From positions 30,333-94,332 of the forward strand of contig DATKUA010000037.1 of the NCBI GenBank assembly GCA_035530855.1: a stretch of 64,000 nucleotides of DNA, written 5' to 3'. This document shows, piece after piece, positions 19,446 through 52,105 of this stretch. Origin of the DNA: Acidobacteriota bacterium (GTDB lineage Bacteria; Acidobacteriota; DATKUA01). How positions within the stretch are numbered: the first letter of the stretch is position 1; every line of letters starts with the position of its first letter. The position numbers were made by a program, and so were the translations under genes. Below the pieces are notes generated by a model. That model saw only the letters and a program-made list of their open reading frames with translations, made no database searches and was not told where the DNA came from.

Positions 19446-21404
19446 CTAGGGATGTACCCTTTTACGGAAAGCATCGATATTGCTTAACCAGCTGTTGAGA
19501 ATCTCAACCTTGGTGAGACTTTCTTTAGATACCTCTGGAGTTTCGGGTGAAGTCAGGAGTTGTTGCAATTCAGCTATCTTGTCTGCAAATTCCTGATTTT
19601 CCGGATCAGCATCGAGCAATTTCCGGTAGATATTCAACGCCTCTCTGTAATGGCCCTGTTGCTCGTAAATCTCCGCAGAAGTTCGGGTTGGCGGAGCTAC
19701 AGACTCTTCATCCTCCGCGGCCTCTTCCACAACTACAACAGCAGGCTCTTCCAGCTCGACTTCATGGGCCGTCGCAAGATCCTCCAATTCCTCTTTACCC
19801 TCTACCCCTTCCAGTACAAAGTCATCGCCCAGCTCAAATTCCAGGTCAGCCTCACTTTCGAGCTCCTCACGGGTTTGCTCTTCGAGGCTTTCCTCCAACG
19901 TACCGACCTGTATACCCTCAGGAGATTGTCCCTCTTTGACGATACAACTTCGATCAAGTTGGAGCTCTTCGGCCGGGAATTCACTCAGCTCTTCTTCGCT
20001 TAGTTGATCCAGCTCGATCACTTCGATACCCGGCGCTTCGTCTAAGAATTCAACTGTAAGGGATTCTTCCGTAATCTCTTCGCTTCCCTCGTCGGCGACA
20101 ACAATCCCTTCCAAATCTCCAACTTCTTCTATTGCTTCTACCTCTACCTCTGCCTCTGCCTCAATCAACTCTCCTTCAGCGGTTGTTATCTCCAGCTCTT
20201 CTCCAGCATCATCACTCACAGGCGGCTTCGGCAGATCTTCTTCAGTTTCCGGAACATCTTGCATCACGATTTCTTCGAGATCCCCCCCGACCTCAATATC
20301 ATCAAGTTCCAGACGAGGTCCCTGATCGTGCTCGTCAACGATGATATCCGGCGTCTCTTCATCGCTTGTGATCCCCTCCTCCACAGTTAAAACTTCCTGC
20401 TCTTCGTCCACTAACTCCTGAACACCCTCCTCACCAATCTCTAATTCAGCCGGTAATGGTATCTCAACACCTTCTATTTCAAGAGACTCCATGCCCTCCT
20501 GCTCTGTCTGCAGGATTCTGTCTTTTTTCTGCTCCTCAAGCAGTTTTTCCGTCTCTATTTCTTCTATCTCCTCAAGTGCCCTAACCTCATCGGCTTCTGC
20601 AATTATGGCTTCCTGATCCGGCGGCTCATCCTCTTCTGTCTTTATATCGAACGTTTTGACCGGTTCCTCTTCCTCCAAGCTGGCTCTTCTTGCCGGCTCC
20701 TCCTCACCGCCGAGAGATAATTCCAATTCTATCTCTTCCTCCCCTTCTTCCCGGTCGAGATCGAGTGAATCATCCTCCTTCTTCGATCCGCTTAAATCGA
20801 TCGGTTGGGGAGTAGGTTCAGTCAAGAAAACAGGTTCCTCCTCCGGCTCCCCTAAATCCGGATCCAGTTCTTCTCCTTCTTCAATCCAATCCAATGTCGA
20901 GCGCTGTAATAATTCCTCTCGTTCTAAATTCAGTTCGCCCTCGCCTGACATATCGACCGATTCAGGCGATGAACTTTCGGGCTGGTCCATTTTCTTTAAC
21001 AACAACTCGACCTCTTGGTCGCCCGGCCGTTGTTCTTTTACTTTCAGGAAGTGCTCTCGTGCACGATCGAAATCGCCGCTCTTCATGTAAAGCTCGCCAA
21101 TATATTTATTTGCCGTCGGATTGTCCGGATTCTTGTCCAACAAATCCTGCAGTGTGCTTCTGGCTTCGTCGTAATTCTTGATTTCAATCAGGCATCGGGC
21201 CAAAGTTATCAGCGCCGGTGGGTAGTCAGTGTGGTGTTTCAGACCTTCCTTGCAGATATAAATCGCTTCGTCGTACATCCTGCTCTTACGATATTCTTCT
21301 GCAAGTGGTAGGAATTTCCGCGAAGTCGGGTCCGCTGCGTACTCGTCTGAGAGAGTTTCCAGGCGTGGTGATAATTCGATTTCAGGTTCGTTCTCTTCCG
21401 CCAT
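19446..21404 (-). CDS. TPR-repeat protein with TPR units at both ends and a ~450-aa polyacidic (E/D/L-rich) low-complexity central region
   Basis: The N-terminal TPRs include 'YDEAIYICKEGLKHHTDYPPALITLARCLIEIKNYDEA'. The C-terminal TPR is 'AEIYEQQGHYREALNIYRKLLDADPEN'. The middle is dominated by E, D, L, I and V. Confidence 0.7.
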   Translation of the reverse strand: MAEENEPEIELSPRLETLSDEYAADPTSRKFLPLAEEYRKSRMYDEAIYICKEGLKHHTDYPPALITLARCLIEIKNYDEARSTLQDLLDKNPDNPTANKYIGELYMKSGDFDRAREHFLKVKEQRPGDQEVELLLKKMDQPESSSPESVDMSGEGELNLEREELLQRSTLDWIEEGEELDPDLGEPEEEPVFLTEPTPQPIDLSGSKKEDDSLDLDREEGEEEIELELSLGGEEEPARRASLEEEEPVKTFDIKTEEDEPPDQEAIIAEADEVRALEEIEEIETEKLLEEQKKDRILQTEQEGMESLEIEGVEIPLPAELEIGEEGVQELVDEEQEVLTVEEGITSDEETPDIIVDEHDQGPRLELDDIEVGGDLEEIVMQDVPETEEDLPKPPVSDDAGEELEITTAEGELIEAEAEVEVEAIEEVGDLEGIVVADEGSEEITEESLTVEFLDEAPGIEVIELDQLSEEELSEFPAEELQLDRSCIVKEGQSPEGIQVGTLEESLEEQTREELESEADLEFELGDDFVLEGVEGKEELEDLATAHEVELEEPAVVVVEEAAEDEESVAPPTRTSAEIYEQQGHYREALNIYRKLLDADPENQEFADKIAELQQLLTSPETPEVSKESLTKVEILNSWLSNIDAFRKRVHP

Positions 21405-21531
21405 CGCCTATCACTCCTTGATTTCTTATTTAAATTTTATATTTCCATTCTTCTGCAGTCAAATATTACTCCTAATTGCTTATAAGGGAGGGTTATTCCC
21501 CTCCCTTCAAAAGCATATGTTAACACTGGCC

Positions 21532-22932
21532 TCAGAAGGTTATCTTCATTACTTCGGTCGAACTGAGGCCGTTGGTATCGGTTACTATCAGTATGATCGT
21601 CAGCTCATCACCTGCAAGTGGCATATCGCCTGCTGAATCTCCGACAGTCAGGGTATTCGTTCTCTTGTCCGTCGAGACATCCTCTGTCACATCCACAGCC
21701 GGATTGCCTGCATTTGGGCTGTAGGTGACGGTCCAGGCATAGGTCAGCTCATCGCCGAAGGGAAGATCCGGATCATAGCTGTTCGCCGCCGAGAGGACGA
21801 ACACATTAACCCGGCCGGTTTCAGCTGTGCCAGAAATGAGGTTGATAACAGCCACAGGCGGTTTGTTAATCTTCACGGCAAGTGTGTCTCTGGTGTTGGC
21901 TGTCCTGGCCGTGAGTGTCGAATCATTCAAAATGTTCTGGACGAATGTTTCAGCCTCTCCATTGCTGTTAGTAATTACCTGATTCTGGGGGAAGTAGGCT
22001 CCTGAATCAGTAGACGAGAAAGTGACCTGGATGTTGGGAACCGGTTGTCCACCCGTTGTTTCCGACTTCACCGTGGCTCTTAACAGAATGGATGCATTGT
22101 TATTGATCAGCACCGGTTCTTTCAGAGTCGCGCCGTTTGTTCCGATGGCCTCCAGCGTGATCAACTTATCTTCTTCATTGGTAATTTCCACCAACTCCTT
22201 GGATTTCAAAGCGCCTGCCGTTGCCGAAATTGTTGCATCTCGTCCGATGTTGCGTATGAAGGTGCTCGCCTTGCCGTCGCCGTCGGTTTTCACTTTCTTA
22301 TTGTCGATCCGCGCGTTGCTGTCATTGCATGTGAACTCAACCCTGACATCGGAAAGCGGCTGGGCGCTCTTCGAAAGCACCGTTGCTTCCGCCTTCACCG
22401 TCAACGGAGCCGTTCCGCTCTCCGGATCAATCTTGAGAACGATGTCGCCGACGTCCTGGTCTTTCCTGACAAATTTGACATTTACGTTCGCTGAAGCCTC
22501 GTTGCCGAAGCGCGCGAGAATCGTAGCAACGACAGGCGTCTCATCGCTCAAGAGATAGAGCGAGGCCTGACCACCCGCTGTGTACACCTCGTAAGTCCTG
22601 GTCGGATTCTGGTCGTCAATCGGATCTATTCCGTTGAGGCTTAAATCGCCTGCATCGGCGGAAAAGCGAACCGGCAGATTATTGGGAGCCTGCTGCCCGC
22701 CCACGGTGCAGCTAGCGATGAGAAGAGTGGAGCTGATGCCGTCGGCAGGGATTTGACCGGGGTAAGCAGTGATGCTGACCGCCTTGGTTCCAGTGGGTGG
22801 TGGCTGGATCTTGGGTTGTGTCGGCGTCGGCGGATCATCAGGTGAGCATCCGCTGATCCCCGCGACCACAAGCATGGCCAGCATCAGAAGCAAGCTGTTC
22901 CTCGCACTGACTCTCATCTTATTTCCTCCCAA
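21532..22932 (-). CDS. Secreted lipoprotein with tandem bacterial Ig-like (Big) domains and a C-terminal PKD-like domain
   Basis: The lipobox is 'LVVAGISGC'. The body is β-rich and repetitive with T/S/N/V. The C-terminal 'NSYDPD...ELTYAWTV...TDTNGLSS' resembles PKD. It sits 63 nt downstream of the preceding lipoprotein gene on the pilQ strand. Confidence 0.6.
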   Translation of the reverse strand: MGGNKMRVSARNSLLLMLAMLVVAGISGCSPDDPPTPTQPKIQPPPTGTKAVSITAYPGQIPADGISSTLLIASCTVGGQQAPNNLPVRFSADAGDLSLNGIDPIDDQNPTRTYEVYTAGGQASLYLLSDETPVVATILARFGNEASANVNVKFVRKDQDVGDIVLKIDPESGTAPLTVKAEATVLSKSAQPLSDVRVEFTCNDSNARIDNKKVKTDGDGKASTFIRNIGRDATISATAGALKSKELVEITNEEDKLITLEAIGTNGATLKEPVLINNNASILLRATVKSETTGGQPVPNIQVTFSSTDSGAYFPQNQVITNSNGEAETFVQNILNDSTLTARTANTRDTLAVKINKPPVAVINLISGTAETGRVNVFVLSAANSYDPDLPFGDELTYAWTVTYSPNAGNPAVDVTEDVSTDKRTNTLTVGDSAGDMPLAGDELTIILIVTDTNGLSSTEVMKITF

Positions 22933-22995
22933 TCGGGAGCCGAGGCCCCCTATGCTCTCTCGGGCTGTTTGCCTCTATCGATCGATATAGCTTCG

Positions 22996-23547
22996 TCAAT
23001 CCGCCCAGTTGGTGAATTCGATTGAAATCTGACCTTTGGCGTACACGCGGTCGCCTTCGATCGTCTTCCCGTCGAATTCCACGATTACGTCGCATTTGAT
23101 GCTGATGTAATTTGTGCTGCGCTCGTAGCCATAGAAGATCAAGTCGCTGATGGGGAACTGACCCTTCATCGTTGCCGGTACGATCGCAAATCCTTCGATC
23201 GTCAGCACGCCCTGAGCAGGAACCTTGTACGATACCGCCGAGCGAAACGTCTGGGGCTTGTCGGACCCGCCGTCTATCCTGTTGAAGCTTACCGTGATCG
23301 ATTCGATGATCACGTCCGCCCATGTAAGGCTACTCAGGCCGCCCGGATTCTTGAGATCGCTGTTAAGCTCGATATCAATGGCGTCGCCTGGAATCGTACC
23401 GTTGGAGCTCATGGTGTCCCCAAACGGTTCTGATGCGGGATTGATCGAGGCCACCGTGAGGATTACCTGCCCCTTCTCTTCGCCGGAGCACGACACAAAG
23501 AGAGCTGCGGCTGCAAATATTGTCAGCAGTAATACCTTCCTCGTCAT
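22996..23547 (-). CDS. Small lipoprotein of unknown function (183 aa) immediately downstream of pilQ
   Basis: The signal and lipobox are 'LLLTIFAAAALFVSCSGE'. It starts 11 nt after the pilQ stop. I recognise no family. Confidence 0.5.
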   Translation of the reverse strand: MTRKVLLLTIFAAAALFVSCSGEEKGQVILTVASINPASEPFGDTMSSNGTIPGDAIDIELNSDLKNPGGLSSLTWADVIIESITVSFNRIDGGSDKPQTFRSAVSYKVPAQGVLTIEGFAIVPATMKGQFPISDLIFYGYERSTNYISIKCDVIVEFDGKTIEGDRVYAKGQISIEFTNWAD

Positions 23548-23558
23548 TGTAAAAGCCC

Positions 23559-26500
23559 CTAATTAATGATTTTCGGTGAGATGAAGATCAACAACTCGGT
23601 GTTCTGAATTCTTTCAAGCCGGTTTCGGAAGAGCCTGCCGATGAGCGGCAACTTACTGAGAAACGGCGTCCTCTCGTAGGTGAGGTTGTTGGAGATCTCC
23701 AGAACGCCTCCGATTACCGCTACGCCGCCGTCCTTGACCAGCACGGTGCTGGTGGCGGCGCGCTTCTGAATGGTGAAACCTGCTGCGGTGGCGATACCGA
23801 GCGAGCTCTTGTCGACTACCAGGTCGAGGATCACCGTGGAATCGGAGGTGATGTGCGGCGTGACTTCAAGCTTCAATGTCGCCTCACGCCACCTGATACC
23901 GACGGTGTTGTTCTGAACCACCTGGAATGGGACCTCGACACCGCTCTTGATCTCTGCCCGGGCGTTGTTTTGTGCGCTGATCCTCGGCCGGCTCAACACC
24001 CTAACCTTCTTCTCGCTCTCGGCTGCCGTAAGGATTACGTCGAGTATGAACGATCCGCTGATATTGGCGAACGATCCGACAATGGAACTGCTTACGGAGT
24101 TGGCAGGCAGGTTAACAGCGAACGGGACCAGACCCGCCCCCGACAAGTTAGCGCCGGCACCCGCAATCGTCACCTGGTTCGGAAACACGAGGCCCGTCGA
24201 AGAGCCGTATTCCGACGTCGCGGAGCCGCGGAAGCCGTATTGGAGGCCGAACTCGTTGATAAAGTCCCTGGTAGTCTCGACGATCCTGGCCTCTACGATA
24301 ACCTGCTTAGTCGGTATATCTAGCGCATCGATCAGCCTTAGATGTTCTTCAACCTTGGACGGGATGTCGGCAATGACAAGAGTGTTGGTTCGTTGATCGA
24401 CAACTACTTCGCCCTTGCTGCTCAGGTTACGCCGGATCAGATTTGCCAGAGCATCAGCTTTGGCATAGTTGATCGGCTTGGCTATATGGCGCAACGGCAC
24501 AGCCAGAGCCCTCTGTTCGATCAGATTGCGCCTCTCTTCCGCTTCAGTAGCTAACCTTGAGCGGCTGGCGATCCTGATAACATTACCCTCCTCGACCTTG
24601 CCGAGACCGTAGTAGTCGAGGATGATATCGAGCGCCTGATCCCATGGTAGATCGCGAAGGCTGATAGTGACGCTGACTGGCTGCACCGAGGGATCGACGA
24701 CGAAATTCTTGTCCGTCATCTGCCCAAGCAGCAAAACCAGAGCCCTGAGATTGATAGTCTCGAACTCGAGGCTCACGTTTTTTCCGTAGTATTGCCTTTC
24801 CGCGCTGGTGATCTCTTTGATCTGGAAGAAATCGCTGCTACCGGCCGTGCGTTCCTGCGGGCTTGAGATTTCTTTCTGTCTAGGTTCCTTGGACGAAAAT
24901 GTCTTCGGTTTGCTGGCGGCCGGACGTTCAACCTTGCTTGGCTGAAGATTGTCAGGATACTGATTGTTGAAAAGGCTGAGATTTTCGCTTATCGGCTCCT
25001 CCGTGCTTCCAGAGTTGTCAGTTGGAGTCTCAACATGGGTAACGGTCGGTTCATTAATTTCGGAGGGTTCTTCCCGGATAGCTTCTTCAACGGGGGCTGT
25101 GGAATCGTTGACCATCTTTGCTTCTTCGGCCGGAGCTTGCCCGTTGCTCCCCTCTAGGTTCTCTACTTCAGGAATTGTTTCAGTCTCAGCCTCGGTTGTA
25201 ACGCTATTTTCAGGAGATCGCGATTCAGAGAGCTGCTTCTCCTCAGCTACTTCTGCTACCGGCGAGATTTCCTCATCGTCGGCCTGAGTTTCAATCGCAT
25301 CTTCTTCCGGTTCAGCAGTGATCGATTCCTCCTGGGCTTCAATCTCCGGCGCCTGCGCTTCAGCTTCAGTTTCCGGAGTGGGCTCAGTTTCAATGATTTC
25401 TGCTACCGTTTCCATCTCCGTAGCGAGTTCAATGGGCTCTACCTCAATTTCCTCATCCTCCTGCGCCTGCTCATCAACCACGCTCTCGGGGACTTCCGGC
25501 GCAGGATCGTCTTCTCCGGCTACGGCCTTGGCAACGTCCGTGAGTTCTGCTTCAGCTAAATTCGGCTCGACAACCGGTTCTTCAGTTTCACTGACCGCTT
25601 CAGCTAGCTCTTCCTTGGCCTCGACCTGCGGCTCGACTGCGTCGCCGAAGAGCAGCACGAGGTCGTTACCCCTTTCCAGGACTGCCGGCTGCGAACCATC
25701 AATCAGATCGAGCACGACACGGCTGATCGGATATGGATCGACAGCGAACTGCGCCGAGCGCACTGAACTAAAGAATTGCGAGCCGGTTGCGTCACTCTTG
25801 CGCGCAAGCAGGTTGGACGCGCCGTGGAAATCAACTACGAATCGAGGCGGTTTTCCAACCGGCACGACTCGATACAATTCTCTGTCAATCGGACGGTCAA
25901 ACGAGATGATCACAGCGGAATCGTCTGCTTTTTCGCGCACGGCAAGGTTGACCATGTTGTAGTGAACCACGGGATTTAGGCGGTATTTCAGCGCAGCATC
26001 CGTTACAGCGTCATCCACCTCAGCCTGGCTCCCGCCGCCGTTCTTTTCCACGCCACCCGCGTTTTTCGCGATCTCTACCTCTTCAACTTCCGTTTCCGCT
26101 TTATCCAGTTCATTTCCACTCTCAGTATCCACAGGCTCCGAATCGGCCTCCATCGGATCATTCTCTGCTACTTGTTCAATACCTCGCCCGTCCGCGACAT
26201 CGTAGAATTCAACAAAAAGCCTTCGACCTTTAGGCGTGATCTTGTATTTCTTATCTGGATAATGTCGGATAGAAATAGCCGTGACTTCCTCGGCAGCCGG
26301 CGTCAGCCTGTTGCTTACTTTTATACTGTCGATCGAATTAGATCCGATTGTAATACCGGGAGCGATGGCGCTGATATCAGCCTTTTCCGTCTCGATGACG
26401 AGAGTCGTCTGCCCTTCGGAATATGCTTTGTATGTGAACGGAAGATTGGCCCTGATAACCAATCTGCTGCTGTTGGTGCTCTCCAGATACTGCAGATCAA

Positions 26501-26618
26501 CTATTCGCAGCGCCAGCTCAGAGTCGCTTTCCCCCAAGGGAGCAGCTATAACCGGTGATAATGCCGCCAGTAAAACTGCGACAGTGAGCGTTACCCTGAT
26601 GAACATAGCACCCTCCAT
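23559..26618 (-). CDS. pilQ: Type IV pilus secretin PilQ (AMIN, AMIN, long acidic linker, N0/N1, secretin)
   Basis: The C-terminal secretin domain is 'VLSRPRISAQNNARAEIKSGVEVPF...ERTPFLSKLPLIGRLFRNRLERIQNTELLIFISPKII'. Two AMIN-like β-domains lie near the N-terminus. The total length is 1019 aa. Confidence 0.88.
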   Translation of the reverse strand: MEGAMFIRVTLTVAVLLAALSPVIAAPLGESDSELALRIVDLQYLESTNSSRLVIRANLPFTYKAYSEGQTTLVIETEKADISAIAPGITIGSNSIDSIKVSNRLTPAAEEVTAISIRHYPDKKYKITPKGRRLFVEFYDVADGRGIEQVAENDPMEADSEPVDTESGNELDKAETEVEEVEIAKNAGGVEKNGGGSQAEVDDAVTDAALKYRLNPVVHYNMVNLAVREKADDSAVIISFDRPIDRELYRVVPVGKPPRFVVDFHGASNLLARKSDATGSQFFSSVRSAQFAVDPYPISRVVLDLIDGSQPAVLERGNDLVLLFGDAVEPQVEAKEELAEAVSETEEPVVEPNLAEAELTDVAKAVAGEDDPAPEVPESVVDEQAQEDEEIEVEPIELATEMETVAEIIETEPTPETEAEAQAPEIEAQEESITAEPEEDAIETQADDEEISPVAEVAEEKQLSESRSPENSVTTEAETETIPEVENLEGSNGQAPAEEAKMVNDSTAPVEEAIREEPSEINEPTVTHVETPTDNSGSTEEPISENLSLFNNQYPDNLQPSKVERPAASKPKTFSSKEPRQKEISSPQERTAGSSDFFQIKEITSAERQYYGKNVSLEFETINLRALVLLLGQMTDKNFVVDPSVQPVSVTISLRDLPWDQALDIILDYYGLGKVEEGNVIRIASRSRLATEAEERRNLIEQRALAVPLRHIAKPINYAKADALANLIRRNLSSKGEVVVDQRTNTLVIADIPSKVEEHLRLIDALDIPTKQVIVEARIVETTRDFINEFGLQYGFRGSATSEYGSSTGLVFPNQVTIAGAGANLSGAGLVPFAVNLPANSVSSSIVGSFANISGSFILDVILTAAESEKKVRVLSRPRISAQNNARAEIKSGVEVPFQVVQNNTVGIRWREATLKLEVTPHITSDSTVILDLVVDKSSLGIATAAGFTIQKRAATSTVLVKDGGVAVIGGVLEISNNLTYERTPFLSKLPLIGRLFRNRLERIQNTELLIFISPKIIN

Positions 26619-27175
26619 TATTGGCGCATCCTGACCGTCAACGGTTCGTATTTAACGTCCGGCTGGCCGCTTACCTTAGGTCCCACACGCTCCAGCTTCT
26701 GCAAGAACTTGACGTACTTGCCGTCAAAGCTGATCTCAACTATCCGCCCGTCGTACGCTTCGTCTCCTACCGCAACGATGAACAACTTGTTGTCCGGGGC
26801 ACGAAACATTGAGGTCACTTTCGTGCTTTCCTTCCAGATCGCCATCAGCGTCAGTTGATTGATGTCATACCTGCCGAAACCCGACTGCGGGCGCGGTTTT
26901 TCGCTGATCTCGTAAGTTGCCGCGGTACTCTGCTGCTGACGCTGAGCCCTGATAAAGGGATCCTGGCGTTTCGTGGTGTCGGAGAGAACCTGCAGCACAA
27001 ACCGCTCGATCTGCTTTGCCGATTTCAGCTCCGCAGGTCTGCGGATCTGCTTCTTTGCCGTCTCTTGTGCAGATACCGGCGCGGCCAGCAGCAAGACAAG
27101 GCAAACCGAAAGCGCTGCCGCCAGGAAGGCAAAAATTAAGCTCTTCGAGGCTTCTCCCGTGTGCATACGCATCAT
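26618..27175 (-). CDS. pilP: Type IV pilus assembly lipoprotein/periplasmic protein PilP
   Basis: It has a signal/TM segment, 'DPFIRAQ', and a C-terminal β-domain 'KLFIVAVGDEAYDGRIVEISFDGKYVKFLQKLE'. Its position between pilO and pilQ fits PilP. Confidence 0.65.
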   Translation of the reverse strand: MMRMHTGEASKSLIFAFLAAALSVCLVLLLAAPVSAQETAKKQIRRPAELKSAKQIERFVLQVLSDTTKRQDPFIRAQRQQQSTAATYEISEKPRPQSGFGRYDINQLTLMAIWKESTKVTSMFRAPDNKLFIVAVGDEAYDGRIVEISFDGKYVKFLQKLERVGPKVSGQPDVKYEPLTVRMRQ

Positions 27176-27810
27176 TCGCCCTCCTCCTCGAGCTCTCCCT
27201 CTTCCTCGGGCCGGTAGACATATGAGGCTATCTTGAAACTGGCTGTCACGGGATAGCGGTCACCCTGCATCTTCGATTCCGCGGTGCGCGTCAACTGAAG
27301 ATCGTAAATGTGTACGACCAGGTCCTTGCGTACCAGGCCATCGAAAAAGCGCATGAAATCAAGCGTTCTGCCTCGCGTCTCAAGGCTGACCACTCTCTCG
27401 AAATACTGGTCGTGTTCAGTTGTGTCGCTAGCCCTGTAGCTGTCGAGCACGATGTCGTAATCGCGAGCTATCTCCTCGATGAAGCGTTTTACGCGGACAT
27501 CGTCCTTCTCCGAGGGGAACACTTTCTCCAACAGCACAAGGTCTGTCCGGATCTGCTCGATCTCGAACTCCAGCTCTTCCTTGCGGCTTTCTTCGGGTTT
27601 GTACTTACGGATCTCGTCGCGGATGTTGTTGAGCCGGCTCTCCATATTCCTGACTTCCTCGACCTCGGCCGAATAGATGAACTGGTAGAAGACCCAACCC
27701 AGCACGGCGCAAAGACCCGCTACGATCAGTAACTGTCCCCAATACGGGAGTTCCTGCAAGTTCATGCTAGCCTCCCGCCTCGCCCTCGGCGCTCCCCTGC
27801 CCCTCCTCAC
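27172..27810 (-). CDS. pilO: Type IV pilus assembly protein PilO
   Basis: It has a single N-terminal TM ('YWGQLLIVAGLCAVLGWVFYQFIY'), a coiled coil, and a C-terminal PilO fold. It overlaps pilP and pilN at their junctions. Confidence 0.75.
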   Translation of the reverse strand: MRRGRGAPRARREASMNLQELPYWGQLLIVAGLCAVLGWVFYQFIYSAEVEEVRNMESRLNNIRDEIRKYKPEESRKEELEFEIEQIRTDLVLLEKVFPSEKDDVRVKRFIEEIARDYDIVLDSYRASDTTEHDQYFERVVSLETRGRTLDFMRFFDGLVRKDLVVHIYDLQLTRTAESKMQGDRYPVTASFKIASYVYRPEEEGELEEEGE

Positions 27811-28381
27811 CCGCGAGAGAGGAGAGGGGATGGAAGGCGATGTTTATTTCGAACTTGTTCCCCGTCGCGCTCACGATGTCGACGCCTGTTACCAGCACCT
27901 CGGCCGCAAGTTCGTCGAGAAACCTGTTCAGGTTTTCGTCCGTTGCCTCGCCCTTCACAGTGAATTCGAGCATACTCTCGGATTCGGAGGTTTTCTGTCT
28001 GATCTCGTCGATTATCACGTCAGGCCTGTTCTGTTGCGCTATATAGAGGTAAAAAACGGCATACAGCGGTGTGCGGAGGTTGTTCTTCAGATCGCTGAGC
28101 ACATCGAGCCGCAGAGCGAGCTTCTCACGCTCAAGCTCCAGGCGATCAACAAGCTCCTTGATGCTCTTGAGGCGTTCCCTTTCTGCCGACGCCGCCCTGG
28201 TCTGAGTGTCAAGATCCGCCTTCCTGCCCTGGATGTCGAACCACAGCCACGCCCCCACCGCCACCGTCAGCAGGAAGATTGCGAGGAAGCCCAGTTGTTT
28301 TACTGTTTCCGAAGGAGCCGCCTTCGCTGCCGGCCTTCGCTCCTTGCGGCGTTCTCTGCGGAGCAGGTTGATGCGGATCAT
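27767..28381 (-). CDS. pilN: Type IV pilus assembly protein PilN
   Basis: The N-terminal 'IRINLLRRERRKER' is the PilN INLLP-type motif. A TM segment and a coiled coil follow. Confidence 0.8.
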   Translation of the reverse strand: MIRINLLRRERRKERRPAAKAAPSETVKQLGFLAIFLLTVAVGAWLWFDIQGRKADLDTQTRAASAERERLKSIKELVDRLELEREKLALRLDVLSDLKNNLRTPLYAVFYLYIAQQNRPDVIIDEIRQKTSESESMLEFTVKGEATDENLNRFLDELAAEVLVTGVDIVSATGNKFEINIAFHPLSSLAGEEGQGSAEGEAGG

Positions 28382-29445
28382 CAGTCTTCCTCCACGCGGA
28401 CAGACAGTCCAACGGCTACCGTGAAGTTGACCGCCTGGTCGCGGATGTACTCGACGTCAAACTGTTTGGAGTTAACGCTTATGTTGCGGAAAGGATCCAT
28501 CACCTCAACTGCCGTGTTGAGTCGCGCGCCGAGCAGGTCCACCAGCCCCGGCGTGCTGGCGGCGCCGCCGCTGACCAGCACCCGATCCAGGGTTCCGATT
28601 TCGGAGCTGCCGAGGTAGAAGTCGAAGGTCTTGGCGATCATTTCGACCACCTCCTCGGTTGCTCGATCGAGCACCGGGACCACCGCATCCGGGGATGCGC
28701 CCTCCACATCGAAGCCGCGCTTGGCGTCCTCGGCCTGCTCGACTCCCAGGCCGAGACTGCGCTGTAATGCTTCGGTGTGGCGATTGCCGCCTGTCATGAT
28801 GTCTCTCCAGAAGGAGGTCTTCCCCCGCTCGATAATATTGATGCTGGTGACGCTCGCACCGATATTTACCAAGCCTATGCTCTCTTCCTTGAGATCGGGA
28901 TAGTTGATTTCGAAGCAGTTCTGAATCGCGAACACGTCCACATCGACAAGCACTGTGCTCTTGCCGACCTGGCTGATGACGCTGGTGTAGTCGTTAACCT
29001 TCTCTTTCTTTACGGCGACGAGAACCACATCCATCGAGCCCTCTTCCTGCGCGTCGCCGAGCGGATGGTAATCGACCATCACCTCGTCAATCTCGAACGG
29101 AATGTACTGCTCCGCTTCCCACTGGATCGAATCCTTCAGTTCGCTTTCGCTCATCTGGGGTACTGTAATCTTCTTGATGATTACCGAATTACCCGCCAAC
29201 GAGATCGCGACATCACCTATCCTACTTTTCAAATCGCGCAGCAGTCGATCAAGTACATCGATCACGGCCACCGAGTCGATGATGTCGCCCTCGACAATCA
29301 CTTGGGGCGCAACGGGCTCAAGGGCAATCTTCTCCAGATCATAGGAGATATTGGCTCCTTTGCCGGAATGCTTCAGGAGGACCGCTTTGATCGCGTGCGA
29401 TCCAATATCGATCCCGAGAAACCTTTTCCGCCTTCCAAAAAACAT
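28381..29445 (-). CDS. pilM: Type IV pilus assembly ATPase-fold protein PilM (actin-like)
   Basis: 'LGIDIGSHAIKAVLL' is the actin/FtsA-like phosphate-1 motif. I placed the start at the internal ATG ('MFFGRRKRF') because a GGAGGG ribosome-binding site lies 5 nt upstream. The longer ORF in the track would overlap the HTH gene. Confidence 0.85.
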   Translation of the reverse strand: MFFGRRKRFLGIDIGSHAIKAVLLKHSGKGANISYDLEKIALEPVAPQVIVEGDIIDSVAVIDVLDRLLRDLKSRIGDVAISLAGNSVIIKKITVPQMSESELKDSIQWEAEQYIPFEIDEVMVDYHPLGDAQEEGSMDVVLVAVKKEKVNDYTSVISQVGKSTVLVDVDVFAIQNCFEINYPDLKEESIGLVNIGASVTSINIIERGKTSFWRDIMTGGNRHTEALQRSLGLGVEQAEDAKRGFDVEGASPDAVVPVLDRATEEVVEMIAKTFDFYLGSSEIGTLDRVLVSGGAASTPGLVDLLGARLNTAVEVMDPFRNISVNSKQFDVEYIRDQAVNFTVAVGLSVRVEED

Positions 29446-29473
29446 ATGCCCTCCGGTTGCTGCCGCCCCCCCT

Positions 29474-29671
29474 TTACCGCCTCTTAACCTGTTCCGCCGG
29501 AATGCGCCTGTTCTTATACTCAAGGCATTGCTTCACGTGCTTCTCAGACCAGATGCGGTAATTTTTGTAGTCTCGGTCGGGTTCGTTGATGATCCCTTTC
29601 TTTAGCCAGCTATAAATTGTCTTCTTCGACACACCGACCTTCTCCGCAACTTCAGAAGTTGTATAGGCCAC
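29474..29671 (-). CDS. Small excisionase/MerR-type HTH DNA-binding protein (HTH_17-like), 65 aa, immediately upstream of pilM
   Basis: 'YTTSEVAEKVGVSKKTIYSWLKKGII' is a canonical HTH. It has a GTG start with a GGGAGGG ribosome-binding site 8 nt upstream. The gap to pilM is 28 nt. Confidence 0.6.
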   Translation of the reverse strand: MAYTTSEVAEKVGVSKKTIYSWLKKGIINEPDRDYKNYRIWSEKHVKQCLEYKNRRIPAEQVKRR

Positions 29672-30050
29672 TATGCGCCCTCCCGCGGGCTTAACCCGCT
29701 AGCCTAGAGGATAACGCTTCTCTCGACTTACCTATTTGGCACTTGTCGAGAACCAACTTATATCGATGTCTATACTCAAGGATGGAAGTCATAATACTAG
29801 AGTGTACTGCCTGCAAGGGGGGAAGTCAACGATTCCAAGCCGTAACTTACTGATATTATTGAAGTTACAGCATCTTGCGGAAATGTCCATCGGGCGCCAC
29901 TAGATATTGTAGAATTTACTTTCAAAAATAACTAGATCTCGCCCCCGCCCAAAATCACCAGAGAGGGGATACCCGAAAATATTTCTACAATTTACTTTAA
30001 GTGAGCTCGCTCTGGCGCACCGCCGAGCCAAACTGTATACTCACCGACCT

Positions 30051-34720: not shown

Positions 34721-36358
34721 TTACCGAGTTTGCTCCCTAGCCAGGCTTAGGGCTTTCGCCCGCTCGGGATCGGTCTTCGCGATTAGCTGGAGATAATAAT
34801 TGGCGAGGACTACGTCCTTCTCTCTCTTGTACAACTCCTCAAGCCGCTTCAAGCGCTCTTCACCGAGGATGCGATCGAGCCGCCGAACAATAAACATCTT
34901 GATTCTGAGGTCCGGCGTTTCCTCGAGAATTTCAATAAAGACATCCTGAACTTCCGGCAACTCAACCACAGGCGTCAAGCCTGCCACCAGCTCGGCGGTG
35001 ACCAAGGTAGGTGGTAGCTCGGGCATCTTGAGCATTCCCAAGAGCTCGACCCGGATTTCGGGGATCTCCACGTGGGTCGAGAGAACGCGTATCGCCGACG
35101 AAGTCAGTCTGATCTCGCTCTTGTTTTCGAGCGTGACCTCGAGGATCGCCTTTCGCACATCTTCATCCTGGACGGAGTCGGAGAGTATATTCATAGCGGC
35201 GATCCTGACGCTGACACTGGGATCGGATTTCAGAGTCTTGACAACAAGTTTCTTGACCTTCGGGTCATGCACTTTCGCGGCTATCAGGTTCAAGGCGTGC
35301 AGGCGGATGGTGGGCGCAGGATTCTCAATCAACGATTCCACCAACACATTCTCCTCCTCGATTCTTATCTTTGTCCGGCCCCGAATTCCGTTCATCAATG
35401 CGTACTTGATCGTCGGATTCGGCTCACTTTCGATCCTGCTGACGATTTCGTCTGTCACCTGCTGGCCGGCACCCCTCAAACTCAATCCATCGACCACACT
35501 GATAAGTACCAACGGATCGCTCTCGGTTCTGATCACGCTGACGAATGCTTTCGCGACATCCACATCCTCGAGGTGGGGAGTGAGCGCAGTAGCAGCTGTC
35601 ATTTTTACGAGGCTGTTGCGGTCGGTGGTCAGAGCGTGCGAGAGGGCTCTCCTAACCTCTTCGTTACCCGACATTCCTGCCAGAACCGAGGCGGCCGTCA
35701 TGCGGACGATGTCGTTTCGCGACGTCTCCAGGGCCAGCGCGAGGGCCTGCCTCACCTCATTATCCTGCCGGCGGTTGGCTAACAGACTTGCGATCCTGAT
35801 CTGCTGGAATTGGTCGCCTCCTTCAAGCCCCTTTATGAGCACGAATTTGCCGCTCCAATCACCTACTTCCGCGAGGCTTATTGCCGATTGGACCGCATAG
35901 TAATTGCCGGAGCCGGTCTGCATTTGTTTTACAAGGAAATTATCGTATTCGTCCCCTTTGGTTCGTCGCAGAACTCTGGCGAGATCCATGGCGCGTTCCA
36001 TCGCCCTGCGGTAGGCGTTGCTGCTCCGGTAGTTATCCAACAACTGCTTGTAGCGGCTGAACGCCTGCTGTTTCTGCCCCAAATACTCACGGCAATAACC
36101 CAGATAAAAGAGAGCATCGTCCGCCCGGTGGCTCCCGGGAAACGCCGCCAGAAACGATTCGAATTTCTCTGCAGCCTCAGCGAATCTGTGGCTAAGGAGT
36201 AGTTGACGGGCCTCAATGTAGGCCTGCAGCCCCGGATCCTGATCCGAGACGAGAGTAAAACGAATCTCTTCTGCTGCCGCTGAGATTGCGAAAACGACGA
36301 TGATTAGAACCATGATATGCGGTATCGCTCTGCGCATCGCCGTCACCTCTCTATCCAC
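34721..36358 (-). CDS. Exported HEAT/PBS-lyase-like repeat protein with an N-terminal TPR-like region
   Basis: It has an N-terminal hydrophobic signal or anchor. Repeated 'xxVRxxAAxALxxxxxxE' HEAT-like units recur throughout, for example 'NDIVRMTAASVLAGMSGNEEVRRAL' and 'SVSVRIAAMNILSD'. It overlaps the upstream anti-sigma gene by 16 nt. Confidence 0.6.
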   Translation of the reverse strand: MDREVTAMRRAIPHIMVLIIVVFAISAAAEEIRFTLVSDQDPGLQAYIEARQLLLSHRFAEAAEKFESFLAAFPGSHRADDALFYLGYCREYLGQKQQAFSRYKQLLDNYRSSNAYRRAMERAMDLARVLRRTKGDEYDNFLVKQMQTGSGNYYAVQSAISLAEVGDWSGKFVLIKGLEGGDQFQQIRIASLLANRRQDNEVRQALALALETSRNDIVRMTAASVLAGMSGNEEVRRALSHALTTDRNSLVKMTAATALTPHLEDVDVAKAFVSVIRTESDPLVLISVVDGLSLRGAGQQVTDEIVSRIESEPNPTIKYALMNGIRGRTKIRIEEENVLVESLIENPAPTIRLHALNLIAAKVHDPKVKKLVVKTLKSDPSVSVRIAAMNILSDSVQDEDVRKAILEVTLENKSEIRLTSSAIRVLSTHVEIPEIRVELLGMLKMPELPPTLVTAELVAGLTPVVELPEVQDVFIEILEETPDLRIKMFIVRRLDRILGEERLKRLEELYKREKDVVLANYYLQLIAKTDPERAKALSLAREQTR

Positions 36359-37194
36359 AGCATGGGATTGGTCTTCCTCGCATCCCTGAGGCTCACAACC
36401 CTGGTCCTGAGCTGGTTGAGCCTGTCGAGAAGGTTGCGATCCTGTATGCCTCTCTGCAACGCCTCGATTTCGAACCAGATATCATCTTCACCGCCTTCGA
36501 TGCCGGCGATCTCGCCCACGAACAACTCGAGCTCATTGAAGATCGGTTCGATCTCGATAAAGCGGGGATCGTTGATACTCTCGCGCAGGAGCGAAATCTC
36601 GCTGAGTATCTCGCTCCCCGCCGCCCTGCTGCGTGAAACCAATTCGTTGTTTGAACTCCACTCCTGCGGATCGAGATCCATGAAGTTGCTTATCAGGGTG
36701 CTGGAGCGCTCTAAGGAGGAGTCGGCTACTTCGAAGAAATAATCTCTTTTGCTCTCTTCTATCTCCCTTTCGTACGGCAGGGTAATCGGCGTTTCGTCAG
36801 CCTCATATCGCGCGCCAGAATCTTCAATCCTCTGTTCGCTAATGATTCTTCCGATGAAGATCCCGATAATCAGCATCGCAGCGACAATCACAATCTGCAG
36901 CGCCGGCCTCCAGTTCCAGACCGCGGGGGCTTTCTCACGCCTGCTATTTGCAGTCCGCTCTTCTCTCTCGCGTCGCTGAAATTCAGGCCATACTTTGCGC
37001 CAGAACTCCGGGCCGGGATCCTCAGCCAGCCTGGCTTCGGAAACCACTCCCAGCGTCTCCTGAAGCTCGTTGTATTCTCGCGCCAGTTCCTCGTCGGCGG
37101 CCAGAGCCTCTTCCAATTCGCGCATGGCGACTGGATCGGCCTCGCCGAAGAGCGCCGAGACCATCAAATCTTGCAGTTTATGATGCTTGCTCAT
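36343..37194 (-). CDS. Putative anti-sigma factor (single-pass membrane protein)
   Basis: It overlaps the ECF sigma gene by 17 nt. It has an N-terminal cytoplasmic helical region, one TM ('LQIVIVAAMLIIGIFIGRII'), and an acidic periplasmic domain. Confidence 0.55.
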   Translation of the reverse strand: MSKHHKLQDLMVSALFGEADPVAMRELEEALAADEELAREYNELQETLGVVSEARLAEDPGPEFWRKVWPEFQRREREERTANSRREKAPAVWNWRPALQIVIVAAMLIIGIFIGRIISEQRIEDSGARYEADETPITLPYEREIEESKRDYFFEVADSSLERSSTLISNFMDLDPQEWSSNNELVSRSRAAGSEILSEISLLRESINDPRFIEIEPIFNELELFVGEIAGIEGGEDDIWFEIEALQRGIQDRNLLDRLNQLRTRVVSLRDARKTNPMLWIER

Positions 37195-37780
37195 CAGCCA
37201 CTCCTGACCCTTTTTTGACCAGTGGCAAAAGCACCTTCCTCATCTTCTGTACCGCCCGGTAGATATTCGTCTTTACTGTCGCTTCGGAGCTCTTGGTTGC
37301 GGCAGCGATCTCGCGTATCGAGAGCTGCGCAATGTGCTTCATTGCGAATGCCGTCCGCTGCGATTCCGGAAGCTCATCCATCGTGCGGCTCACCAAAGTG
37401 GAAATCTGCTCCGATGCCAGATTGCGCTCCGGATTACCCTTGGCATCGGGATTTTCCATCAGGTCGAAAACCTCCGTACCATCTTTATCGATCTCCGGCG
37501 CGGCTTCCTTTCTGCGGCGGCGTCTCAAATCGATTGATTTGTTGAAGGCTATCCTTAAAACCCAGGAGCCGAAGCCCTCCGGATGGCGCAGCCGATCGAT
37601 CGATCTCAAAGCCTGCAGCAGAGTATCCTGCAGCAGGTCCTCGGCATCGTGATGGTTGCCGACCACGCTGAGCACCGTGTAATAAATTTTCCGCTTGTAG
37701 CGCTCGGCAAGGAGCTGGAACGCCTCGATCTCATTGTTGCGCGCTCTGTCCACAAGCTCAGCGACGGTTGGTGCCATCAA
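37178..37780 (-). CDS. ECF-type RNA polymerase sigma factor (sigma-70 family, group 4)
   Basis: Region 2 is 'YKRKIYYTVLSVVGNHHDAEDLLQDTLLQALRSIDRLRHPEGFGSWVLRIAFNKSIDLRR'. Region 4 is 'ESQRTAFAMKHIAQLSIREIAAATKSSEATVKTNIYRAVQKMR'. Confidence 0.85.
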   Translation of the reverse strand: MMAPTVAELVDRARNNEIEAFQLLAERYKRKIYYTVLSVVGNHHDAEDLLQDTLLQALRSIDRLRHPEGFGSWVLRIAFNKSIDLRRRRRKEAAPEIDKDGTEVFDLMENPDAKGNPERNLASEQISTLVSRTMDELPESQRTAFAMKHIAQLSIREIAAATKSSEATVKTNIYRAVQKMRKVLLPLVKKGSGVADEQAS

Positions 37781-50307: not shown

Positions 50308-51332
50308 TGATAATATCAGTTATCGGGGGGGGAAGCTGGGGAACGGCATTAGCCAACTTCCTGGCAGGGCTGAATCACGACGTCCGTCTATGGGCTCTTG
50401 AACCCGAAATCGTTGATGACATCCGTAACAATCAGGCCAACTCGGTCTTCCTGCCGGGTGTAGTCCTGAATGAATCGATTAGGGCGACAACCAACTTCAA
50501 GACCGCGCTCTCCGGCACAGAACTGGTGCTCTCGGTAGTTCCTACACAATTCGTCCGCTCGGTGCTTGTCCGGATGCGGGACTTCTTGCCCCAGAACGTA
50601 ATCATGGTAAGCGCGAGCAAGGGTATTGAAAACACGACGCTTTGCCGGGTCACAGAGATATTTAAGGATGAGCTCCGCGGGAGGGTCGGCGCAAGCAGAA
50701 TCCTGGTTCTCGCCGGCCCCAGTTTCGCGAAAGAAGTGGCCCGCTCCCAACCTACCGCCGCCGTCATTGCCGGCAAGGACATCAATCTCGCAGCCAAAAT
50801 CCAGCATGAGTTCTCCTCCGATCTCTTCCGGCTCTACACAAGCGACGACTTAATCGGTCTCGAAATCTGCGGAGCGATCAAAAACGTAATCGCTCTGGCG
50901 AGCGGCGCCTGTACCGGCCTCGGCCTGGGCGACAACTCCCGCGCGGCGCTCATCACCCGCGGCATCGCCGAAATCGCCAGGCTGGTCACGAAGATGGGCG
51001 GTCGCAGCCAAACCGTTGCGGGGCTGGCCGGAGTCGGCGATATGGTGCTTACCTGCACCAGCACGACCAGCCGTAACTTCAGTTTCGGCTACAGGCTGGG
51101 CCGCGGCGAGAAGCCGCAAAACATAACAGATTCGATGCGGATGATTGCGGAGGGGGTGAAAACCTCCATCTCGGCAGTCGCGCTTGCCGAGCGCGAGGGT
51201 GTCGAAATGCCGATCTGCCAAGCCATCTACGCTGTTATCTACGAAGGCCTGCCTCCTCTCGAGGCCGTGCGTCAGTTGATGACGCGCGGTTTGAGGCACG
51301 AATGGGAACCCGAACCGGGAGAAGTGCCATGA
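50304..51332 (+). CDS. gpsA: NAD(P)H-dependent glycerol-3-phosphate dehydrogenase
   Basis: 'ISVIGGGSWGTALANFL' is the Rossmann motif. 'GAIKNVIALASG' is also present. Confidence 0.9.
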   Translation: MMIISVIGGGSWGTALANFLAGLNHDVRLWALEPEIVDDIRNNQANSVFLPGVVLNESIRATTNFKTALSGTELVLSVVPTQFVRSVLVRMRDFLPQNVIMVSASKGIENTTLCRVTEIFKDELRGRVGASRILVLAGPSFAKEVARSQPTAAVIAGKDINLAAKIQHEFSSDLFRLYTSDDLIGLEICGAIKNVIALASGACTGLGLGDNSRAALITRGIAEIARLVTKMGGRSQTVAGLAGVGDMVLTCTSTTSRNFSFGYRLGRGEKPQNITDSMRMIAEGVKTSISAVALAEREGVEMPICQAIYAVIYEGLPPLEAVRQLMTRGLRHEWEPEPGEVP

Positions 51333-52105
51333 AGCATATGTTGCTGTTAAGCCTGGCTTTCATCCTCGCCCTTGGCACCGCCTGTGGTAGCGGCGGTCAG
51401 TTGAAGAGCGATTCCGCCGATAGCTTCGCCTTCCACTACAACCTTGGCATGGCTTCGTTCGAAAAGGGTGATTATCGGTCAGCAATCAAACACTTCGAGC
51501 GCTCGATCAGAATCAATCCCAACGTGGCTCGAACCCACAACGAGCTGGGGATGTGCTTCCTTTTCCTCAAGGAAAACGCCAAGGCAGTGCCGCACTTCGA
51601 GCGTGCTTTGGAAATCGACCCATCCTTCGGCGAAGTCCACAACAACATCGGTATCTCTCTTTTCGGGCTGGGCCGCTACGAAGAAGCCGAAATGCATTTC
51701 CAGGCAACGCTGGCTTCGCCGGATTACGGCACGAAATTCATCCCCTTGTACAATCTGGGCAACCTGTATCAGAATTTGGGGCGCTATGACGACGCGATCG
51801 CCATTTATGAGCGCGCCCTGGAGGACGAAGAGAGGATTACAGTCGAGTATCGGATAAACATTCACCATCAGCTAGGCAATTGCCTGCTGGCCATTAGCCG
51901 CTACCGCGAGGCCTACGAACACTATGAGCTCGTTTTGGTTCTGAATCCAAGGCTGGTCGAGGCTGCTTTCAATGCAGGCGTGGCTTCCTTCAACTACGGG
52001 GATTTTGCCACCGCAAGGATGATGTTTTCAAAGGCAATCTCCGTTGCGCCGGGCAGCGAGTGGGAAAAGCGAGCCAGGGAGTATCTCGGCAAGATGGAGC
52101 GTTGA
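51329..52105 (+). CDS. TPR-repeat lipoprotein (~258 aa)
   Basis: The lipobox is 'LAFILALGTACGSG'. Five to six TPR units follow, for example 'YNLGMASFEKGDYRSAIKHFERSIRINPN'. The start overlaps the gpsA stop as ATGA. Confidence 0.6.
   Translation: MKHMLLLSLAFILALGTACGSGGQLKSDSADSFAFHYNLGMASFEKGDYRSAIKHFERSIRINPNVARTHNELGMCFLFLKENAKAVPHFERALEIDPSFGEVHNNIGISLFGLGRYEEAEMHFQATLASPDYGTKFIPLYNLGNLYQNLGRYDDAIAIYERALEDEERITVEYRINIHHQLGNCLLAISRYREAYEHYELVLVLNPRLVEAAFNAGVASFNYGDFATARMMFSKAISVAPGSEWEKRAREYLGKMER

Follow-up and report, generated by a model that had tools for sequence, protein, structure and literature searches.

Nearly everything known about type IV pilus secretins was learned in Proteobacteria, Myxococcus, and Thermus/Deinococcus. 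The pili of Acidobacteriota, which rank among the most abundant bacteria in soil, are to our knowledge unstudied. This article concerns a 64,000-nucleotide (nt) stretch of DNA from the metagenome-assembled genome of an Acidobacteriota bacterium (contig DATKUA010000037.1 of assembly GCA_035530855.1, positions 30,333 to 94,332), referred to here as the window, in which the pilus genes pilM, pilN, pilO, pilP, and pilQ are followed on the same strand by genes for two lipoproteins, a small one of 183 amino acids (aa) and a longer one with immunoglobulin (Ig)-like domains. The small lipoprotein represents an unannotated family with a predicted fold that always stands after pilQ, and it is a clear candidate for a new partner of the secretin.

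Proteins that assist secretins fall into several groups. The pilotins PilF of P. aeruginosa, PilW of Neisseria, and Tgl of M. xanthus are outer-membrane lipoproteins that are required for the localisation and multimerisation of PilQ. They resemble the 183-aa protein in their small size, but they consist of all-alpha tetratricopeptide repeats (TPRs) and are usually encoded away from pilQ, whereas the 183-aa protein is all-beta in the predicted fold and its gene adjoins pilQ. The pilotins of type II and type III secretion systems (GspS/PulS/AspS, ExsB/YscW, and MxiM/InvH) are likewise small lipoproteins, some of them beta-rich, and their genes often stand beside that of their secretin.

A different arrangement is found in Deinococcus radiodurans, where the secretin structure 8CO1 contains two lipoproteins on a PilQ-type secretin, the cap DR_0940/GspT and the belt DR_1364/GspP (PMC10828601). 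The cap is a beta-rich protein of 208 aa with its lipid-bearing Cys at position 20, while the belt is an Ig-like protein of 155 aa, 95 residues of which were modelled (PMC10828601). TsaP and SlkA/SlkB are periplasmic accessory proteins that bind the secretin of type IVa pili (PMC13392014). However, TsaP has a LysM domain and the Slk proteins are soluble plugs; none is a lipoprotein with the fold of the 183-aa protein, and there is no family match between them.

A lipoprotein family coupled to pilQ

The gene for the small lipoprotein (22996..23547, minus strand) encodes a signal peptide with the lipobox LFVSC, which places the lipid-bearing Cys at position 20. The protein, which has the same sequence as HUX06137.1, has no match in Pfam, NCBIfam, or PADLOC. 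A word-indexed search yielded no more than 15 close relatives. When 1.84 billion cluster representatives were searched with a profile, 211 family clusters at 50% identity were recovered (E<=1e-3), nearly all of them 180-215 aa long with a signal peptide and a lipobox Cys near position 20. A profile built from the more distant members added 291 further proteins, every one either unnamed or called 'hypothetical protein'. None of the 67 family members scanned against Pfam has a meaningful domain, the two stray matches at E ~0.01 being noise. The protein thus founds an unannotated family.

Species genomes of GTDB were scanned with a degenerate DNA pattern for Y.V.[YF].R.D[GT]G..VP, which covers about a quarter of the family; the resulting counts are lower bounds, and downstream genes were counted with iterated hidden Markov models. 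The scan returned at least 120 loci. Among the matches listed, 108 carry a family member and 12 are chance matches. All but one of these 108 family loci are from Acidobacteriota, mostly Thermoanaerobaculia. Wherever the listed loci include upstream DNA, an open reading frame (ORF) homologous to PilQ lies directly upstream on the same strand (101 of 101), and the next gene downstream encodes a lipoprotein with a Big_1-like first domain in 101 of the 103 listed loci with enough sequence. In 15 further loci from metagenomes and metagenome-assembled genomes, chosen to span the family, with profile E-values as weak as 6e-6, pilQ is again directly upstream in all. The linkage holds for relatives that are just 22-30% identical to the 183-aa protein. 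Over 111 loci from the genome scan, the assembly-derived contigs, and the window, the lipobox Cys codon lies a median of 81 nt beyond the pilQ stop, which leaves only ~5-30 nt between the two genes.

Linkage among close relatives proves little by itself. In those whose small lipoproteins are 57-66% identical to that of the window, the whole string of genes is kept, from the helix-turn-helix (HTH) gene before pilM to a TPR gene after the lipoproteins, but so are the housekeeping flanks tgt, yajC, secDF, and hutU. More telling are the distant members. Four contigs of the CSSED10 type (25-31% identity) carry pilMNOPQ followed by a 190-aa lipoprotein, a PKD/Ig lipoprotein of 182-286 aa, and a TPR protein of 226-247 aa; next in line are aroQ, pepP, and efp, and rpmB stands upstream in place of the HTH gene. 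The order is the same on a contig of Candidatus Schekmanbacteria, where the second lipoprotein is a Big_1 protein and a ferredoxin gene is inserted ahead of the TPR gene. Family members found at E=1e-28, 1e-8, and 6e-6 each come directly after a secretin gene, and for a fourth distant member, on a contig of 783 nt, the 23 residues encoded upstream finish in the secretin C-terminal motif LLIFITPRVIKL.

The outer flanks thus vary between lineages, with hutU downstream in the clade of the window and aroQ to efp elsewhere, and with either the HTH gene or rpmB upstream. Since these flanks differ, the adjacency to pilQ is more than local synteny, and chance synteny was rejected as its source because the linkage persists while the flanks change. 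The new lipoprotein family and its partner Ig-like lipoprotein are strictly coupled to pilQ in at least three phylum-level lineages, namely Acidobacteriota (mostly Thermoanaerobaculia), Candidatus Schekmanbacteria, and CSSED10. Both lipoprotein ORFs are real genes, given that their protein sequences are conserved across many genomes and that the small one is predicted to fold with high confidence (see below).

Housekeeping genes stand after pilQ in many bacteria, as aroK-aroB do in Pseudomonas, and aroQ and efp come after the lipoprotein module in CSSED10 and Schekmanbacteria. The two lipoprotein genes could likewise have nothing to do with pili and be envelope genes that are simply carried along on the pilMNOPQ transcript. 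We regard this as highly improbable, because more than 115 family members were examined and all lie next to pilQ, with none elsewhere, and because the family keeps its position while other flanking genes change.

A preliminary description of the locus, made from its DNA alone, had proposed that pilMNOPQ is extended by three genes, the HTH gene upstream and the two lipoprotein genes downstream, and had set linkage to the pil genes in related genomes as the test. Both lipoprotein genes keep this linkage at every locus that could be checked. Of the 33 loci in which the DNA ahead of a complete pilM is visible, only 5 have the HTH gene, which was therefore rejected as a member of the conserved module.

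Predicted fold of the small lipoprotein

From a single sequence, AlphaFold2 gives an unusable model of the 183-aa protein, with a predicted local distance difference test score (pLDDT) of 43. The run taken instead, with an alignment of 67 sequences, reaches pLDDT 94.5 and a predicted template modelling score (pTM) of 0.82. The model consists of a signal helix, a tether of ~7 residues past Cys20, and a beta-sandwich of seven strands accompanied by two short helices. The preliminary description had called the protein a β-rich lipoprotein of no recognised kind. Across 168 full-length members, the invariant or nearly invariant positions are C20, R90, D92, G94, P98, P132, L136, G140, G160, and G165, and the core motif of the family reads Y-x-V-x-[YF]-x-R-x-D-G-G-x-x-V-P.

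The same description had held that neither lipoprotein resembles the TPR-type pilotins or TsaP, and this is borne out. The modelled 183-aa protein is all-beta and lacks the all-alpha fold of about six repeats that characterizes TPR pilotins, the second lipoprotein is Ig-like, and none of the nine proteins encoded by the gene string has a LysM match in Pfam or NCBIfam of the kind expected for TsaP.

One subfamily (P0073, P0074, P0076, P0120, P0139, P0144, and P0145 in alignment A4) ends in a Cys-rich tail, F-C-x-x-C-G-G-C, which could be a metal or disulfide site. The 183-aa protein of the window differs from this subfamily in ending with F-A/T-N/D-W-A-D instead.

The Ig-like lipoprotein

The second lipoprotein gene (21532..22932, minus strand) encodes 466 aa if read from a TTG at 22932. 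The likelier start is an ATG at 22917, which stands behind GGGAGGA and gives a protein of 461 aa. The gap to the small lipoprotein gene is 63 nt when counted to the TTG and 78 nt to the likelier ATG. The protein has the lipobox ISGC, a Pro-rich linker, domains of the Big_1 type (PF02369, 4.4e-18), and a PKD-like Sde0182_C domain at the C-terminus (PF21027, 1e-5); no relative of its sequence was found in the PDB. In other genomes the first Big_1-type domain is followed by a variable number of further Ig and PKD domains, so that the proteins range from 182 to ~760 aa.

Adhesins such as invasin and intimin typically contain Big_1 and PKD domains, and a domain number that varies greatly between lineages is typical of surface proteins. 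Along with the long Pro-rich tether, these features would suit a surface-exposed adhesin, or a cargo dependent on the pilus machine: the Ig-like lipoprotein might be displayed on the surface or exported through PilQ, with the small lipoprotein as its partner or chaperone. There is precedent for such export in the lipoprotein pullulanase, which leaves the cell by a type II system. The preliminary description had likewise offered a pilus-tip or surface adhesin as a possible role. That one or both lipoproteins are adhesins or cargo is nevertheless distinctly unlikely. The locus has no sorting signals or partner transport genes, and both the first Ig domain past the anchor and the position of the gene are conserved across phyla, which suits a component of the machine better than a fast-evolving adhesin.

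Pilotin or accessory subunit

By gene order, a pilus- or secretin-related role of the lipoprotein pair is well supported. The preliminary description had suggested a new pilotin or a secretin-associated pair, and the evidence retains the general role but weakens the pilotin part. The reason lies elsewhere in the window. Between gpsA and ftsY, 22 kb from pilQ, a gene on the plus strand (51302..52105) encodes a TPR lipoprotein of 267 aa with the lipobox LGTAC, a candidate pilotin of the PilW/PilF/Tgl type. Its best NCBIfam match is PilW (TIGR02521, 1.6e-29), nearly full length at 103 bits against a cut-off of 154, and its match to Tgl (1e-25) is also below the cut-off. A lipoprotein signal is present in the 183-aa, 461-aa, and 267-aa proteins, and among the lipoproteins considered only the last fits the fold of a TPR pilotin. 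The window therefore probably encodes a conventional pilotin.

In spite of this, the small lipoprotein could itself be a pilotin, though not of the TPR type. It would then serve as a chaperone, bringing PilQ monomers to the outer membrane via the Lol pathway and afterwards departing or remaining loosely attached, as is the case for ExsB/YscW, MxiM, and AspS with other secretins. Its gene is next to, and strictly linked with, that of its secretin, and the PilQ of the window has an ordinary signal peptide and is therefore not self-piloting. On balance we consider a pilotin function unlikely, since a PilW/Tgl-like TPR lipoprotein is encoded in the same window; the presence of that gene favours an additional, probably structural, secretin partner.

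The reading that we prefer is that both lipoproteins are membrane-anchored partners of the secretin that stabilise or decorate PilQ, to which we assign a probability of roughly 0.55. We infer the mechanism from gene order, lipoprotein signals, the short tether, the conserved loops, and a moderate fold match. The small lipoprotein would be made together with PilQ through translational coupling and would bind the secretin as an accessory subunit, held close to the membrane by the ~7 residues that separate its lipid-bearing Cys from the first strand. Its contact surface may be formed by the conserved loop residues R-x-D-G-G-x-x-x-P, P132, L136, and G140. The Ig-like lipoprotein, on its long Pro-rich tether, would provide a second, more distal layer, and the two together would stabilise or decorate the PilQ multimer. 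Such an arrangement would resemble the cap and belt of Deinococcus more than a transient pilotin, because the window has a gene for a PilW/Tgl-like TPR lipoprotein at another place.

The parallel with Deinococcus, a sandwich lipoprotein of ~200 aa and an Ig-like lipoprotein beside PilQ, is suggestive but weakly supported. The model of the 183-aa protein matches one lipoprotein chain of 8CO1 over 99 aligned residues, as one among many sandwich-fold matches. This chain is more likely the cap than the belt, given that 99 residues are aligned and only 95 are modelled in the belt. The Ig-like protein, for its part, differs from the belt in having multiple Big_1/PKD domains, as opposed to a single IPT/TIG domain.

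Several observations weigh against the role proposed here for the two lipoproteins. The seven-stranded sandwich is generic, with TRAP-alpha, ApaG, Spo0M, and TMEM106B scoring equally or higher, and 8CO1 is not among the top 50 Foldseek hits for the 183-aa model. Searched against PDB sequences, those of 8CO1 among them, the family profiles return nothing beyond noise at the level of signal peptides. The Deinococcus lipoproteins are encoded in other operons and not beside the secretin gene (PMC10828601). Furthermore, the PilW-like 267-aa protein scores under the curated cut-off, and the genome sample is biased by the search pattern, nearly all the matches listed being from Acidobacteriota.

A stronger version of the proposal makes both lipoproteins permanent, stoichiometric, ring-forming subunits of PilQ, evolutionarily or functionally equivalent to the cap and belt, which so far have been seen in Deinococcus alone. 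We consider this less likely than not. If it were true, a secretin architecture that is not seen in the proteobacterial models would be widespread in Acidobacteriota, Schekmanbacteria, CSSED10, and perhaps other lineages. Should the small lipoprotein simply bind PilQ, it would already represent a third solution for the assembly or stabilisation of secretins, after the TPR and S-domain pilotins; this would suggest that the arrangement in Deinococcus is no oddity, and the family would offer a marker gene for annotating such pilus machines.

The pilMNOPQ genes

The minus strand between 19.4 and 29.7 kb is occupied by nine tightly packed genes, from the HTH gene to the TPR gene, within which the pil genes adjoin or overlap by 1-4 nt. 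The region is best explained as a type IVa pilus operon, pilMNOPQ, with a conserved 3′ extension. The preliminary description had recognized a canonical pilMNOPQ cluster on one strand, and all eight ORFs it reported, which did not include the 652-aa TPR protein, lie on the minus strand where it placed them. The gaps it gave are also correct: 28 nt between the HTH gene and pilM, 11 nt between pilQ and the small lipoprotein gene, and 63 nt between the two lipoprotein genes. From the HTH gene to the end of the Ig-like lipoprotein gene, the coding strand has no terminator-like site beyond weak consensus matches at chance level.

pilM (28381..29445, minus strand) encodes 354 aa from an ATG at 29445 and has the actin-like ATPase fold of PilM (PF11104, 1.2e-70; TIGR01175, 1.6e-74, at 251 bits against a cut-off of 133). 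pilN (27767..28381, minus strand; 204 aa) has no Pfam match of its own in the scan and was assigned by its position, by the N-terminus MIRINLLRRE, which contains the INLL(P) motif of PilN and leads into a hydrophobic transmembrane segment, and by a BLASTP match (3e-6) to the Pfam-positive PilN of another family locus, L006. pilO (27172..27810, minus strand) is an ORF of 212 aa if started at its GTG (PF04350, 1.4e-5), but the ATG at 27765, 1 nt past the pilN stop, is the more likely start.

pilP (26618..27175, minus strand; 185 aa; PF04351, 1.5e-6) overlaps the pilO stop by 4 nt. In the hydrophobic N-terminus of its product, the residues around a Cys (LSVC) make a poor lipobox, and signal peptidase I probably cuts further along, at VSA-QE. 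The PilP of the window may therefore not be a lipoprotein, in contrast to proteobacterial PilP. pilQ (23559..26618, minus strand) encodes a PilQ-type secretin of 1019 aa (TIGR02515, 5e-104, at 348.7 bits against a cut-off of 284), with the STN/N0, Secretin_N, and Secretin domains at residues 612-1019 and a long acidic linker; its signal peptide is not of the lipoprotein kind. The nearest solved chain is M. xanthus PilQ (3jc8, 2e-84). The Pfam and NCBIfam assignments of PilM, PilO, PilP, and PilQ all pass the curated cut-offs.

The HTH gene

The first gene of the string (29474..29671, minus strand) starts with GTG behind a GGGAGGG Shine-Dalgarno sequence and encodes 65 aa that comprise only an HTH domain of the MerR/excisionase type. 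The five loci that carry it are those of the window and of its four closest relatives (L001-L004). Across these four the HTH protein is ~85-90% identical, as against 57-66% for the neighbouring small lipoprotein, and its gene lies 21-34 nt before pilM in L002 and L004, which have full-length pilM calls. Upstream, in an alignment of the window, L001, L002, and L004, the non-coding region between tgt and the HTH gene is nearly invariant over ~70 nt, while the proteins of the same four are only ~60% identical. By these comparisons the HTH gene is a real, constrained, and clade-specific first gene of the operon, as indicated by its high protein identity and the almost invariant non-coding region in front of it.

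The protein matches the N-terminal winged HTH of MerR regulators (PF00376, 4.5e-10, at 39.6 bits against a cut-off of 28.2; also PF13411) and aligns with residues 2-48 of the MerR regulator 4ua1. It thus resembles MerR, BldC-like proteins, and the excisionases Xis/AlpA, but unlike MerR regulators it lacks the coiled-coil dimerisation helix and the effector domain, and it falls far short of the cut-offs of the full-length MerR, CueR, and ZntR models. A σ70-like promoter, TTGACT-17 nt-TACACT (29801..29829, minus strand), was identified by consensus match only, ~130 nt upstream of the gene and within the nearly invariant non-coding stretch; its 17-nt spacer differs from the 19-20 nt typical of MerR targets. 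The HTH protein is probably a transcription factor for the pil operon.

It also passes the cut-off of the excisionase domain TIGR01764 (31.3 bits against 28.8) and matches HTH_17 (PF12728) and PADLOC mad1, as would be expected of a remnant excisionase from a mobile element with no part in pilus regulation. Such an origin is improbable, because there is no integrase, tRNA, or repeat near the gene (the window has no tRNA gene at all) and its neighbours are tgt and pilM. The context of a mobile element is thus missing. Its position is conserved in the four relatives, including directly before pilM in L002 and L004, at the high identity given above, the promoter region upstream is conserved as well, and the best solved matches are DNA-binding domains of the MerR family.

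The intergenic region between tgt and the HTH gene (29672-30050) has further features. One is a conserved block, AGTATGATGACTTCCATCCTTGAGTATAGACA, perhaps a leaderless mini-ORF (M-T/S-S-I-L-E/V-Y...). Another is a hairpin, TCTCGAC...GTCGAGA, and two boxes of the form AAAGTAAATT-nTAnAA lie upstream, at 29997-29975 and 29922-29901. Rfam has no match in the window or in this conserved region, and RNAalifold gives no convincing consensus structure for the four leaders.

The TPR gene and other genes of the window

The last gene of the string (19446..21404, minus strand; TPR_19, 1.6e-26) encodes a protein of 652 aa with TPR repeats at both ends and a highly acidic middle of ~430 aa. Among the matches listed in the genome scan, a homologue lies downstream on the same strand at 51 of 53 loci. 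In other lineages the homologues are only 226-350 aa long and do not have the acidic insert. The TPR proteins are without a signal peptide in every lineage, and the 652-aa protein has no lipobox; its candidacy as a PilF-type pilotin was rejected for want of a signal peptide. An acidic region flanked by TPR motifs and a location near pilus genes recall the cytoplasmic part of FimV/HubP, and there is a weak match, below the cut-off, to the C-terminal TPR motif TIGR03504 (5e-4). However, the protein has no LysM domain, signal peptide, or transmembrane segment, unlike FimV/HubP.

About 15 nt past the stop of the Ig-like lipoprotein gene is a hairpin, GGGAGGGG-loop-CCCTCCC (21490..21515, minus strand). 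The 66-nt stretch that contains it (21470-21535) has a minimum free energy of -24.1 kcal/mol (z -3.9). The hairpin may be a terminator, though one without a clear U tract. It is followed, ahead of the TPR gene, by the best promoter-like site of the region in a promoter scan, TTGACT-17-TAAAAT (21462-21434). On account of this stable hairpin and promoter-like site, the TPR gene may be a separate transcription unit, which would fit the ferredoxin gene inserted at this point in Schekmanbacteria.

Two other places in the window may be mentioned. At 34721-37780 (minus strand), near secDF, is an envelope-signalling module of three genes in a row, which encode a 200-aa extracytoplasmic function (ECF) sigma factor, a 283-aa putative anti-sigma factor, and a HEAT/TPR protein of 545 aa. 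Finally, a gene for a PAS-GGDEF diguanylate cyclase is found at 61454-62614 (minus strand); cyclic di-GMP frequently controls pilus function.

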